A DNA stretch of 64,000 nucleotides from an uncultured Verrucomicrobiae bacterium (GTDB taxonomy: Bacteria; Verrucomicrobiota; Verrucomicrobiia; Chthoniobacterales; UBA10450), in NCBI GenBank assembly GCA_963815455.1, contig CAWFGO010000001.1:693258-757257 (forward strand), given 5' to 3'. Of the stretch, positions 10,232 to 55,061 are shown one piece after another. How positions within the stretch are numbered: position 1 is the first letter of the stretch; each line of letters begins with the position of its first letter. The notes beneath the pieces are model-generated. The model was not told the DNA's origin, ran no database searches, and saw only the letters and a program-made list of their open reading frames with translations. Position numbers and translations under genes: made by a program.

Positions 10232-11321
10232 CTATGACGCTTTCGCCGATTCGCTGCGTTTGGTTTGCAGTCTCAACTGGCCGCAGGCGGCCTCGATATC
10301 GTGGCCTTTCTCGCGGCGTAATGTCGCGGCGATTTTATGCCCGCGCAGGATCGACAAAAATTTCTCCTGGCGATTCCTGGACGGCCGCGACCACGGCAAA
10401 TCTTCGACCGTATTGTAGGGAATCAGGTTCACTTTGGCCGAAAGCCGGCGGGCATGACGCGCCAGAGAGATGCGCTTGATCGTCGGAGTCATTCACGTCC
10501 GCGATCAAAATGTATTCGAATGTGATCCGCTGCTTTTTGGAGGAAGCATAGTAATCGCAGGCCGCGAGCAACGTCTCGATGTTGTACCGGCGATTAATCG
10601 GCATGATCTGATCGCGCACGTGATCGGTTGCGCCATGCAACGAGACGGCGAGGCGGATTTGCATGGGTTCATCGGCCAGCTTCCTGATCTGCGGCGCGAG
10701 GCCGCTGGTCGAGACGGTGATGTGCCGCGCGCCGATGCCGAGGCCCCATGGCGCGTTGATGATGCGGATCGCGGCCATGACGTTCTCCAGATTCGCCAGC
10801 GGTTCGCCCATGCCCATGAAGACGATATTGTCGATCTTCTCGCCGCTCTCCCTTTCGATCGCGATGATTTGATCCACAATTTCACCCGGGCGCAGATTAC
10901 GGGTAAATCCGTCCAAACCGCTCGCGCAAAATTTGCAGCCGTACGCGCAACCAACCTGGGTCGAGATACAAATCGTTCGGCGATCGGATTTTTGGCCGTA
11001 AAGCGCCGGCGAGGCCGGGATCAATACGGATTCGATCAAATTTCCGTCCTCGAGCCGGAAAAGAAATTTCTGCGTCGTGTCGCTCGATCCCAGCACACGG
11101 ACGATGTCGATCCTGCCGAAGGAGAATTTGTCCGCCAGCTGCGTCCGCAATGGTTGCGACAGATCGGTCATCTTGTCGAATGCATCCACTCGCTTCTGGT
11201 AAAGCCAGCTGACGATCTGGCTGGCGCGATAGGAAGGCTCATCCAGTTTGCGCAGCTCTTCCTCGAGCTCATCCGCTTGAAGGGACTTGATGTCGATCCT
11301 GGCCGCTTTCGTCACGGGCAA
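10232..11321 (-). pseudogene. rlmN: 23S rRNA/tRNA (adenine-C2)-methyltransferase RlmN, radical SAM, with one apparent +1 frame break
   Basis: ORF 10335..11321 carries CAYGCKFCASG (CxxxCxxC) and GEPL. The conserved C-terminus (KVNLIPYN...GHDIEAACGQL) is in ORF 10232..10492, in another frame. The break lies near 10463-10472 (ctctct on the coding strand). Dropping one base gives the E. coli-like spacing. Confidence 0.85.
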
Positions 11322-11595
11322 ACTTACCGGACGGCGGAGCTTGCATCAAACATCGCCACAGTTAGGTTCGTTCCTGTGAACAAACGCTTCGCAATTTACG
11401 CTGTAATCCTTTCGGCAATCACTTCACTTCTGGGTGGTTGCGCTTCCGATTCCGGCGGGGAAACCACTTCACAACCTGCGGCGGCGGTTCCTGGCCAAAA
11501 CCGCGGCGGTGAAGAGGTGACACCTGGGATGGGCCCCAGCGGCCCGAGCGCAAACGTTCGTTGGTAGCGCAAAAGACGCCGCTACGAGTTCTGGC

Positions 11596-44353: not shown

Positions 44354-44383
44354 TTCTTCGTGTCCTTCGTGTCCTTCGTGGTT
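44354..44383. repeat. Family-C short repeat, duplicated unit
   Basis: ttcttcgtgtccttcgtgtccttcgtggtt in the thrS upstream region, preceded by gccgcggctacaa, which resembles family-B/A arm fragments. Confidence 0.55.
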
Positions 44384-44436
44384 AATTGCTCCCGTTTATG
44401 CAGGAAGACCGCAAAACTCTAGACCAACGCGCGACG

Positions 44437-46494
44437 ATGACGGACTTGGAACGTCTTCGCCATTCGGCATCGCATGTTCTCGCCACCGCGATTCTAAAAA
44501 TCTGGCCGGAGGCCCAATTCGCCGCCGGTCCGCCGGTCGAGAACGGTTTTTATTACGATGTCGATCTTCCCCACCGGATTTCGCCTGACGACTTCGAAAA
44601 GATCGAGGCCGAGATGAAGAAGGAAATCAAGGCCAATCATCCGTTCGAAAAGATCGAAGTCTCCCGCGACGAAGCTTTGGCCATGGCGAAACGCGGTGAA
44701 CTTGGTGCCCTTGGTGCGAGGTCCGAGCCGAGCAAGTTCAAGATCGACATCATCGAGAACATCCCGGCGGATGAGAAAATCTCGCTCTATCGCAACGGCG
44801 ATTTCCTCGATCTCTGCGCCGGCCCCCACGTGATGCGCACCGGAAACGTCGGCGCGTTCAAACTGACGCACGTCGCGAGCGCCTATTACAAAGGCGACGA
44901 AAAGAATCCGCAGCTCCAACGCATTTACGGCACCGCTTTCAAAAACAAGACGCAGCTCGACGAATATTTCGCCATGCTCGAGGAAGCGAAGAAACGCGAC
45001 CATCGCAAGCTCGGCAAAGAACTGGAGATTTACATCATCGACGACGACGTCGGCCCCGGGTTGCCGCTGTGGCTTCCGCGCGGCGCCGCCATGATCGAAG
45101 AACTGGAGAGGCTCGCCAAGGAAACCGAGTTCGCCGCCGGCTATCTACGCGTGCGCACGCCGCATATCGCGCGCGAAAGTCTCTATCTAAAAGAGCGGAC
45201 ATCTTCCTTACTACTAGGGAGTCAATGTTTCCGCCGATGCCGGTCGAGAAAACACGAAGAATATCGCATTGGGCCGCTTGTTTTGAGCGAGGGAGAAGCA
45301 AAGGGCGATTTGGACACTCACGAGAAGGCGGTAAAGGCATTCATGCCTGATTTGGATACGCCCGGACATCCGCGAGTCGATGAGCAAAATGACTCAGCGA
45401 GGAAATTGATCAGATTATTGAGGAGCGAATGTTCGAAAATGGGGCGACAGAAGTTAACAAAGCCTTTAACAGAGGTGCCATTGATAATTGGTTATCAATG
45501 GTAATGCTGACCCAAATAGCGCCGATTGAAGATCGCTATTTTCTCAAAGCGATGAACTGTCCGCATCATCACAAGTTGTTTGCGGCGGTTCCTCGGAGTT
45601 ATCGCGATCTGCCGCTGCGGCTGGCAGAGTACGGGACCTGTTATCGCTACGAGCAGAGCGGTGAATTGATCGGACTCATGCGGGTGCGCTCGATGCAGAT
45701 GAACGACGCGCACATTTATATGCACGCCGGAGCAGTTCGAAACCGAGTTCAACGCCGTGAACGAGATGTATCTGAAATATTTCAAGCTCTTCGGGATCGA
45801 GAAATATCTGATGCGTTTCTCGACCCACGATCCGGCCAAGCTCGGACAAAAATTTGTCGATGAACCGGAGCTTTGGAAACAAACCGAAGAAATGACCCGC
45901 AACGTTCTCAAGAATTCCGGGATCAATTACGTCGAGGTGCCAAACGAAGCGGCGTTTTACGGACCGAAGATCGACGTGCAAGCCTGGAGCGCGATCGGGC
46001 GGGAATTTTCCATCGCCACCAACCAGGTCGATTTCGCGCAGCCGCGCCGGTTCGAGCTCGTTTACAAAGACAAGGACAACACCGAGAAAACGCCGCTCTG
46101 CATCCATCGCGCCCCGCTCGGCACCCACGAACGATTCATCGGCTTCCTGATCGAACATTACGCCGGCAATTTCCCGCTTTGGTTATCCCCGGAACAGGTC
46201 CGCATCCTCACCATCGGCGACGACGCGAAGCTGATCGATTATTCGATGTCGATCTTAAATGAGTTGCGCGCACATCAAGTCCGCGCCGAGATCGACAAGA
46301 GCACCGATCAAATCAACGGCAAAATCCAGCGCGCCGAACAAATGAAAGTCCACACCATGTTCGTGATCGGAAAACGCGACCTCGAGGCAGACGCCGTCAG
46401 CGTCCGCGTTCACGGCAAGGGAAATCTCGGCGCCAAACCGCGCGCGGAAGCGATCGAGGACATTTTGCTGTCGATCAAGGAACGACGCAGTTAG
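44437..46494 (+). pseudogene. thrS: Threonyl-tRNA synthetase (no TGS domain), interrupted by a 288-nt insertion and three single-base frame breaks
   Basis: Pieces lie in ORFs 44386..45504, 45069..45350, 45429..45863 and 45757..46494. Motifs: HSASHVL (editing domain), [45 protein letters not shown] (motif 2), HRAPLGTHERFIG (motif 3), plus the anticodon-binding domain. Confidence 0.85.
45239..45526 (+). other. Discrete 288-nt intervening segment inside thrS (281 nt unique plus one copy of the CGCCGAT direct repeat); nature unknown
   Basis: CGCCGAT occurs at 45232-45238 and 45520-45526. Lower G+C than the flanks. In-frame stops at 45348, 45381 and 45390. Perfect hairpin at 45478-45501. Excision restores [22 protein letters not shown]. 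Confidence 0.5.
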
Positions 46495-53117: not shown

Positions 53118-53220
53118 CGCCAGAAAATGATCTTCGGATTTAACAATTGATAGGCAATTAACGTCAAGCTCTTGTGCGTCGTCCCCGGCACTCCGTGGGA
53201 CAAGCCTTGATCGGGGGACG

Positions 53221-55061
53221 ATGACGGGACTAAAACAGGAAATGGATTTGCGGGGCATACTGAAGAAGCACTTTGGCTATGATCAGTTTCGGCCGCTGCA
53301 AGAAGAGATCATCGCCGACGCCCTGGCGGGTCGCGATGTTTTTGTCCTGATGCCGACGGGCGGCGGGAAATCGCTTTGTTTTCAGTTGCCGGCGTTAATT
53401 CGCGATGGATTAACGATTGTAGTGTCGCCCCTCATTTCCCTGATGAAAGATCAGGTCGACGCGCTGCGGGCGAGCGGGATCGCCGCGACGTTTTTGAATT
53501 CGACGCTGGACCGCCACGAAGCGGCTGAACGATTCCGAGGTTTGAATCGTGGCGAGTATAGGATGCTCTACGTCGCGCCGGAGCGACTCATGCTGGATAG
53601 GTTCCTGGAGGGAGCGTTGAACTGGAACATCGCGCAGATCGCCATCGACGAGGCTCATTGCATCAGCGAATGGGGACACGATTTCCGGCCGGAATATCGC
53701 GAGCTCAAGAAATTGCGAACTCACCTTCCCGATGTGCCGGTGATGGCGCTTACCGCAACCGCAACCGAACGGGTCAGGATCGACATCGTCAAGCAACTCA
53801 AGCTGCGTGAGCCACGCTGCTATGTGGCCAGTTTCAATCGGCCGAATCTTACCTATCGCGTAATTCCGAAATCGGGACCTTACGATCAACTGCTCGCTTT
53901 CGTCCGGAGCCGGCCAAACGAGAGCGGCATCGTTTATTGCGCGAGCAGAAAGACGGCGGATTCGTTGCCACAGAGTTAAACACCGACGGAGTCAAAGCGA
54001 AGCCGTACCATGCCGGGCTCGACGCAAAGGAGCGAACAAGGCATCAGGACCTTTTTCTGCGCGATGATGTGCGCGTGATTACGGCAACGATCGCGTTCGG
54101 GATGGGGATCAACAAATCGAACGTCCGCTTCGTTATCCATCACGATCTGCCGAAGAATCTGGAAAGTTATTATCAGGAGACGGGGCGGGCCGGACGGGAC
54201 GGATTGCCCAGTGAGTGCGTGCTGCTTTTCAGCGCGAGCGACGTGGTCAAGCAACGGCGTTTCATCGAAGAGAAAGGCGAAAAGGAACAGCAGATCGCAA
54301 AGGAGCAGTTGCGCGACATGATTCATTACGCTGAGACCCGCCATTGCCGGCGGGCCACGCTGCTGAAATATTTCGGCGAAGAATTTCCGGTTCCCTGCAA
54401 TGGCTGCGACAATTGCCTGGAGCCGCGGGAAACGTTCGATGGGACTGTTCACGCGCAGAAATTTCTATCCTGCGTTTATCGCATCCACGAAAAACACGGT
54501 TTTGGTTTCGGGTTGAATCACGTTGTCGATGTTCTGGCCGGCGCCGAAACAGAAGCCATCAGGCAACGCAGCCACCATGAACTTTCAACATATGGGATCG
54601 GCAAGGATGTGAAACGGACCGCGTGGCTCGCGATTGGTCGTGAGTTGTTGCGGTTGGGACTCGTCGCCGCTGCGCCGGGAAAATTCGCGACGTTGCAATT
54701 AACGGAGGCCGGACTCGCAGCCTTGCGCGAGCGAAAGTCACTCACGCTGACAAAGCCGTTCGATGTCGAAACGACCAGGCGAGCCAGAAAGCATCGAGCC
54801 GGCGACATTGAATGTGACGAATCGTTGTTCGAGCAACTGCGCGTCTTGCGCCGCCAAATCGCCGATGAACGCGATGTGCCCGCCTATGTCATCTTCTCCG
54901 ACGTTGCCCTGCGCGAAATGGCGCGGGGTTATCCGACGACTTCCGCGGAGTTCGGTCGAATTCCAGGGGTCGGTCAGCAGAAGCTACGGGATTTCGCAGA
55001 GCCGTTTACTGCTGCGATCAGAGATTATCTCGCGAGCAATCCTCGCCAGTCACGAGCCTAG
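53221..55061 (+). pseudogene. recQ: ATP-dependent DNA helicase RecQ, apparent -1 frame break
   Basis: ORF 53221..53979 (FGYDQFRPLQ, PTGGGKSLCFQ, DEAHCISEWGHDFRPEY) joins ORF 53937..55061 (PYHAGL, ATIAFGMGINK, YYQETGRAGRDG, the Zn-finger CRR..C..CDNC, and HRDC). The break lies near 53955-53968. Confidence 0.9.

Follow-up and report, generated by a model that had tools for sequence, protein, structure and literature searches.

Does the DNA that separates the two halves of the catalytic core of thrS, the gene for threonyl-tRNA synthetase (ThrRS), belong to the enzyme or was it inserted from elsewhere? The case is met in a 64,000-nucleotide stretch of contig CAWFGO010000001.1 (assembly GCA_963815455.1) from an uncultured Verrucomicrobiae bacterium of the Chthoniobacterales, the whole of which is called the window here. 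The conserved motif ESMFPP (45219-45236) and the second core motif (45525-45572) lie in the same reading frame, 97 codons apart, and this frame is closed by TGA stops at 45348, 45381 and 45390, as an earlier note on this DNA had recorded; the stretches in frame +1 (45253-45392) and frame 0 (45393-45524) are likewise open, as it said. The note considered inactivation by a small mobile element, an intervening sequence removed at the RNA level, and a lineage-specific insertion domain of ~96 amino acids blurred by indels. The last of these has held up, since orthologues carry the insert in frame and eight 1-nt corrections recover its peptide. On this evidence, the segment appears to be the locally present allele of an in-frame insertion cassette of ThrRS that is typical of the lineage and hypervariable, and not foreign DNA, and this account, with the indels most likely being consensus errors, is the explanation that we regard overall as probable.

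The host gene (thrS, 44398-46494, forward strand) encodes a ThrRS without the TGS domain and carries the eight 1-nt indels. In a search with the rebuilt conceptual protein, its product was 80-96% identical to Chthoniobacterales ThrRS and matched the solved ThrRS structures 1NYQ and 1QF6 with E-values down to 1e-155; the tRNA_SAD editing, tRNA-synt_2b catalytic and HGTP anticodon-binding domains are present, together with the zinc-site motif MNCP. By tblastn, thrS is a single-copy gene in the window, and the gene on its 3′ side is homologous to the gene 3′ of thrS in the related locus L001 (L numbers are used here for loci and P numbers for proteins), which identifies the window thrS as the orthologous locus. 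The closest flank matches, with 91-96% identity, are genes of the P0016/P0035 type.

The evidence for an insertion domain comes mainly from these orthologues. The cassette, which is of a 94-aa type, occupies positions 45240-45536 of the forward strand between the anchors ESMFPPM and YFLKAMNCP, with helices alone in its predicted structure. A homologous 94-aa insert is found in frame and at the same position in P0001-P0008, P0018, P0025 and P0028 and, at the level of the locus, in L001 and L085-L090; the earlier note had itself held that a homologous in-frame insert at this site in related ThrRS would speak against an element. The insert of P0003, for example, reads MPVRKHEEYR...MLTQIAPLEDR, and the window cassette, which is also homologous to that of the P0001 group, shares with it 65% of the amino acids and 77% of the nucleotides; measured against the P0003 gene (L001), the window segment has 77-80% nucleotide identity and the flanks 81-86%. 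Among the intact homologues of the 94-aa type, the ratio of nonsynonymous to synonymous divergence (dN/dS) is 0.07-0.25, indicating purifying selection, and in the AlphaFold2 model of P0003 the cassette stretch forms four helices with a predicted local distance difference test (pLDDT) score of 69-85. A segment homologous in the orthologues, a constrained peptide and a predicted fold are what is found for an in-frame insertion domain. The peptide itself gave no family, no intein and no transposase in a Pfam scan, and, apart from the orthologous thrS site, neither the window nor 1.3 Mb of related loci contains another copy of the segment. Of two metagenome scans for a closer relative of the window cassette, one gave no match and the other only the P0001 subtype with 51% identity, and a scan of viral contigs found no cassette, giving no evidence of phage carriage.

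On the known structures, the cassette site maps to the loop at residues 320-326 of the Escherichia coli ThrRS (327-330 in Staphylococcus aureus), where these enzymes have only 6-9 residues, in agreement with the short loop cited in the earlier note; Cys334, a zinc ligand, stands on the strand right after this loop. By this mapping and the predicted helices, the cassette is a helical domain of ~94 aa set in a surface loop, immediately ahead of the strand on which the zinc-ligand Cys (MNCP) stands; it is translated as part of the enzyme, purifying selection acts on it within a cassette type, and it may form a helical arm whose role would be dispensable or modulatory. Excision of the segment would not bring back an ancestral core, as the nearest relatives hold 15-19 residues at this place, not 4.

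How far this site varies was assessed in 195 Verrucomicrobiota ThrRS, taking the residues between the anchors SMFPPM and RYYLKAMNCP. The loop ranges from 12 to 244 residues with a median of 81, and the 147 cassettes of at least 40 aa fall into 67 families without detectable mutual similarity, while the remainder of the ThrRS is 80-95% identical across those enzymes. Cassette type and the remainder of thrS are decoupled: the ten proteins with the cassette type of the window are the most distant from it by their flanks (82-90%, ranks 94-106 of 106), and in those whose flanks are closest (91-96%) the inserts are unrelated. In several pairs of the 94-aa type, the cassette and ~45 nt on each side of it are 93-100% identical, the flanks being 80-90% identical, and the synonymous divergence (dS) of the cassette is far below that of the flanks, for instance 0.075 versus 1.09; the high identity and low dS of these cassettes show that they have been replaced laterally, the breakpoints lying in the conserved anchors. 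In most other cassette types, divergence of the cassette exceeds that of its own flanks, consistent with vertical descent and a weaker constraint. These patterns indicate a site of rapid turnover, in which cassettes diverge faster than the flanks, are deleted, and are sometimes replaced laterally by recombination with breakpoints in the highly conserved flanking anchors.

Two other features of thrS were observed alongside this variation. A second, smaller variable patch is located in the editing-domain region at 44675-44722, with in-frame indels relative to close relatives, AMAKRGELGALGARSEPSKF versus DLGKKGRLAALSDRGQPSKF, which seem to be alternative alleles across the clade. Upstream of the gene, 15-25 nt 5′ of the thrS start, tandem 9-nt units TTCGTGTCC TTCGTGTCC TTCGTGGTTAA are present at 44354-44385; TCGTGGTTAA has its sole exact occurrence in the window here, upstream of thrS. 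Such units recur upstream of thrS across Verrucomicrobiota (L001, L085-L089 and L082/83, and in looser form L017, L027, L039, L040, L063, L066 and L068), have no Rfam match, and may be a thrS-specific leader or operator.

The reading frame of the window copy is broken not only within the cassette. By three-frame translation, alignments to L001, L082 and L084, and frameshift-aware alignment of the DNA to the P0003 protein, by which the indels were placed, eight 1-nt indels were located in a patch at 45190-45720 of the forward strand. Seven of them are insertions, with the extra bases at about 45190 (in an A4 run), 45215 (T), 45246 (G, or in the A-run 45249-52), 45367 (C), 45398 (C/G), 45432 (T) and 45720 (A/T/C); the sole deletion is a missing base at about 45452. 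The interruption of thrS described by the earlier note is real as far as the frame breaks in the sequence go, but its attribution to a foreign segment is not supported, and the breaks at ~45190, 45215 and 45720, which lie outside the cassette in conserved thrS, had been missed. All eight fall within 530 nt, and there are none in the remaining 1,580 nt of the gene. After correction, 197 aa of the peptide align to P0003 with 81% identity, including SKMG.Q.VN, and the cassette begins with PVRK and ends with IEDR followed by Y. The similarity to the old-frame peptide is kept between compensating indels, and the conserved block at 45534-45719, between two of the indels, has 98% amino acid identity to P0035, so that no excess of substitutions accompanies the indels. 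The extra T at 45215 is supported by P0127, from an independent read set, which reads YYRESMFPPM. The eight sites share no motif. A set of 242-aa JGI proteins was considered as sharing the frameshift at 45720 and was rejected, these being partial genes at contig edges.

Judged from the assembly as deposited, the eight indels are quite likely an artefact. They most probably arose as consensus errors of a long-read metagenome assembly where co-existing strains differ in structure, the apparent inactivation of the gene resulting from indels in a 530-nt patch that has the cassette at its centre. Noise made up of indels only, at a strain-variable site, has the look of a mis-polished consensus, unlike the decay of a pseudogene. 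The source contig, of 1,735,601 bp and from a metagenome-assembled genome, has a length typical of long-read assembly, recQ in the window carries a 1-nt deletion as well, and other assemblies also fail in thrS. Among metagenome-assembled genomes from long reads, thrS is garbled inside the cassette in L009 (10823-11095, with clean flanks), has one extra T at 10789, adjoining the cassette, in L060, and is broken along the whole gene in L049. In four independent short-read assemblies (L091, L092, L093 and a fourth JGI contig) the start of the contigs coincides, to within 1-3 nt, with one thrS position, equivalent to ~45766 of the window and ~240 nt downstream of the cassette, a recurrent breakpoint of the assembly graph. 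Weighing against this explanation, insertions make up seven of the eight indels, with the majority of the sites outside homopolymers, which is not the classic signature of nanopore errors; long intact open reading frames (ORFs) are numerous in the remainder of the window, so that the error process would have to be ~100 times more intense locally; and, as regards the domain itself, the AlphaFold2 model of P0003 is poor overall, with a mean pLDDT of 54 and a shallow alignment.

Under the main rival scenario, that of a genuine and very recent pseudogene, the indels would be real and the organism would rely on another ThrRS gene outside the window. Broken ORFs are indeed what the deposited assembly contains, and recQ, in the same window (53131-55061), is also frameshifted, being split into two overlapping ORFs by a 1-nt deletion at 53964, where relatives read TCG CTG/CTT GCC; this was the only further frame break detected by a Pfam check of ten adjacent ORFs and by tblastx over the part of the window with homologues in related loci. 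Nevertheless, natural decay gives substitutions and deletions besides insertions, and taken at face value the gene has disabling indels and no excess of substitutions, with the concentration of the indels, the near-identical adjoining block and the retained peptide similarity described above. ThrRS is moreover essential, and the syntenic thrS is the only copy in the window; a pseudogene is consequently considered unlikely. Still less probable is an assembly chimera, with a cassette, or an entire patch, built from the reads of another strain that co-occurs and has a different thrS. The flanks nearest to the P0016/P0035 type, combined with a cassette type otherwise present only in the most distant flank group, would agree with a chimera, as would the coincidence of the indel patch with the cassette and the tendency of assemblers to break in thrS. 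However, the decoupling of cassette and flanks is also found in many independent short-read contigs with clean recombination signatures, so that a mosaic is expected biologically, and the downstream synteny matches L001, a lineage with the cassette type of the window.

The features from which a small non-autonomous mobile element, or a relic of IS200/IS605 type with a 7-bp target duplication, had been proposed are present in the sequence as described, namely the heptamer CGCCGAT and a perfect hairpin, and other genomes hold true elements with repetitive extragenic palindromic (REP) sequences and RayT transposases at this same site. The two heptamers (45232-45238 and 45520-45526, both on the forward strand) fall in the codons Pro-Pro-Met of the conserved anchor and Ala-Pro-Ile at the C-terminal end of the cassette, respectively. 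Exact 7-mer pairs 150-450 nt apart number 2,336 in the window and 67 within thrS alone, and in seven homologous cassettes the word common to both junctions is only 3-5 nt, owing to these Pro-Pro-Met and Ala-Pro-Ile codons; the repeat is thus at chance level and not conserved in the homologues, and does not support a target duplication. The hairpin with a 10-bp stem, ccattgataa-ttgg-ttatcaatgg (45478-45501, forward strand), lies inside the cassette, where it encodes AIDNWLSM. It is the only perfect 10-bp hairpin of the window (0.25 expected), and has a free energy of -14.4 kcal/mol, compared with -3 to -10 kcal/mol in the seven homologous cassettes, in which the hairpin is not conserved. The compositional difference reported earlier does exist, with 48% G+C at 45239-45524 versus 56% in the flanking thrS, but it does not indicate foreignness: the G+C and especially the third-position G+C (GC3) of the cassette are below those of the flanks in 76% of 58 related loci, and such a family-wide feature gives no sign that the window copy is of recent foreign origin. 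No terminal inverted repeats bound the segment, no recurring repeat above chance was found, and dispersed copies are lacking in the window and in the 1.3 Mb of related loci, so that nothing characteristic of a miniature inverted-repeat transposable element or insertion sequence was detected; neither are there REP or RayT words in the window, a Pfam match or any similarity to RayT profiles. With a peptide under purifying selection in addition, a mobile element is a very improbable source of this segment, even if the description is true of the occupants of L063, L065, L066 and L077. The cassette was also compared with RayT as a possible decayed copy, which was rejected (hhalign probability of 0.14%).

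Removal or skipping of the segment during expression, as an intron, an intein, or a bypassed or frameshifted stretch, has in its favour only that the direct repeat can be imagined as take-off and landing sites, and appears extremely improbable. The orthologues translate the segment in frame and under purifying selection, which speaks against the RNA-level removal envisaged earlier, and the frame is also broken outside the segment. Rfam gave no match at the gathering threshold and, at a permissive threshold, only chance-level hits (E > 2). No Hint domain was found in the cassette peptide by Pfam, and its ends, PVRK and IEDR followed by Y, are not the splicing-junction residues of inteins, which have Cys, Ser or Thr at the N-terminus and His-Asn before Cys, Ser or Thr at the C-terminus. 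Conserved slippery sites are absent. As specific candidates, translational bypass, programmed +1 frameshifting and transcriptional slippage at A4 runs were rejected, relatives being in frame, the sites having no common motif and A4 being too short.

True elements do occupy the loop in other genomes. A complete HUH/Y1 transposase domain lies in frame in the thrS loop of four loci, as RayT-type inserts at L063:10877-11452, L065:10868-11524, L066 ~10835-11509 and L077:10913-11526. The insert of L065 scores 32.3 bits with Pfam Y1_Tnp (cutoff 23) and that of L077 19.5 bits, below the cutoff, and HUH and YIxxNP-type motifs can be read from the sequences of these inserts. Inverted REP-type words, GGGAGCGCGGGCGTCCCGC ... 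GCGGGACGCGCGCGCTCCC, stand on either side of the insert in L065 and L063; L077 has a REP pair covarying with the ends of L065, and in L066 a search for such a terminal pair detected none. L063 and L065 have in common the internal hairpin GTTTCCGGCG-tcg-CGCCGGAAAC, of which a related form occurs in L066. The RayT-type insert has ~1,000 homologues, mostly free-standing proteins of ~200 aa, for which JGI uses the name RayT. The short cassettes of P0048, P0050, P0053 and P0075 are REP-derived linkers without transposase. Moreover, the same RayT family is nested in frame in alanyl-tRNA synthetase (AlaRS; P0143, P0159, P0195 and P0237), in CarB (P0224) and in a RecG-like helicase (P0254), these being fragments, with the REP-derived linkers LGSAGASPAVS... 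and ...RDTAGEAPALP beside the nested RayT. No description of RayT nested in frame in housekeeping genes was found in the literature searched.

In a further arrangement, two ORFs with helical tails stand in place of an undivided thrS, the break falling at the cassette loop, in L068 (4224-5513 and 9863-10972) and in L071 (902-1144 and 2083-3249). The halves of L068 are separated by toxin-antitoxin pairs (HEPN/MNT and UPF0175/PIN-like, DUF3368), a D12 DNA methylase and a helicase fragment, and L071 has a rearranged version of this arrangement. Taken with the nested elements, these genes raise the tentative possibility, which we rate well below even, that the loop is a permissive landing pad in an essential gene: REP/RayT DNA would insert and be translated in frame, helical cassettes would descend from such insertions or coexist with them and be swapped between lineages by recombination in the invariant anchors, and the loop could open to give an enzyme split around islets of toxin-antitoxin or methylase genes; with RayT also in alaS, carB and a recG-like gene, this would amount to an addiction lifestyle like that of inteins. 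An intein-like lifestyle of IS200/RayT-type elements was not found described.

Compared with known systems, the window feature belongs to a known kind, the idiosyncratic insertion domains of aminoacyl-tRNA synthetases (aaRS). Like other lineage-specific insertion domains of aaRS, it is an in-frame module of the catalytic domain, set in a surface loop, that one clade has and the enzymes of E. coli, S. aureus and Bacillus subtilis lack; unlike them, where one conserved domain per clade is usual, a single loop here holds 67 unrelated families and undergoes lateral exchange. AARS Online mentions no ThrRS module at the position of the cassette (PMC11580382), and neither such a module nor the hypervariability of the site was found described in the literature searched. 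Rickettsia palindromic elements (RPEs) are selfish palindromic repeats situated in frame in protein-coding genes (PMC10969869). They resemble the present case in that peptides of foreign composition are tolerated in frame in housekeeping enzymes, the REP-only and REP-RayT cassettes of thrS being direct analogues; nevertheless, RPEs are multi-copy and spread over many genes, whereas the window cassette is a single-copy, constrained domain without palindromic ends. As for REP/REPIN systems and their REP-associated tyrosine transposases (RAYTs), the described RAYTs are stand-alone extragenic genes (PMC2817692, PMC3116915, PMC5581495). L063, L065 and L077 agree with them in having a RayT-type HUH transposase flanked by inverted REP words and differ in that thrS contains the complete unit, translated in frame; nothing of the kind is present in the window. 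With inteins the site shares a selfish or neutral insertion that sits at a conserved position of an essential protein and cannot be lost imprecisely without lethal effect, but a Hint domain is lacking and the mature protein apparently retains the insert. Naturally split synthetases include the Aquifex leucyl-tRNA synthetase (LeuRS) alpha/beta and the Nanoarchaeum AlaRS. L068 and L071 are comparable to these, their ThrRS being encoded in two ORFs broken at the cassette loop with a helical tail on each half, although the split lies within the class II catalytic core, with toxin-antitoxin and methylase genes between the halves; the window thrS is only frame-shifted, not split.

For the window thrS, it follows that annotation as a gene which a mobile element or an intron has inactivated is to be avoided, the disruptions being probably errors. 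For metagenome assembly and polishing, the site is a warning, since long-read consensus and short-read graphs both fail there. The site also suggests a way in which selfish DNA may hide in essential genes and, with dozens of unrelated, exchangeable cassettes in one loop of an essential and otherwise conserved synthetase, it would offer a natural experiment in the tolerance of an enzyme to domain insertion.

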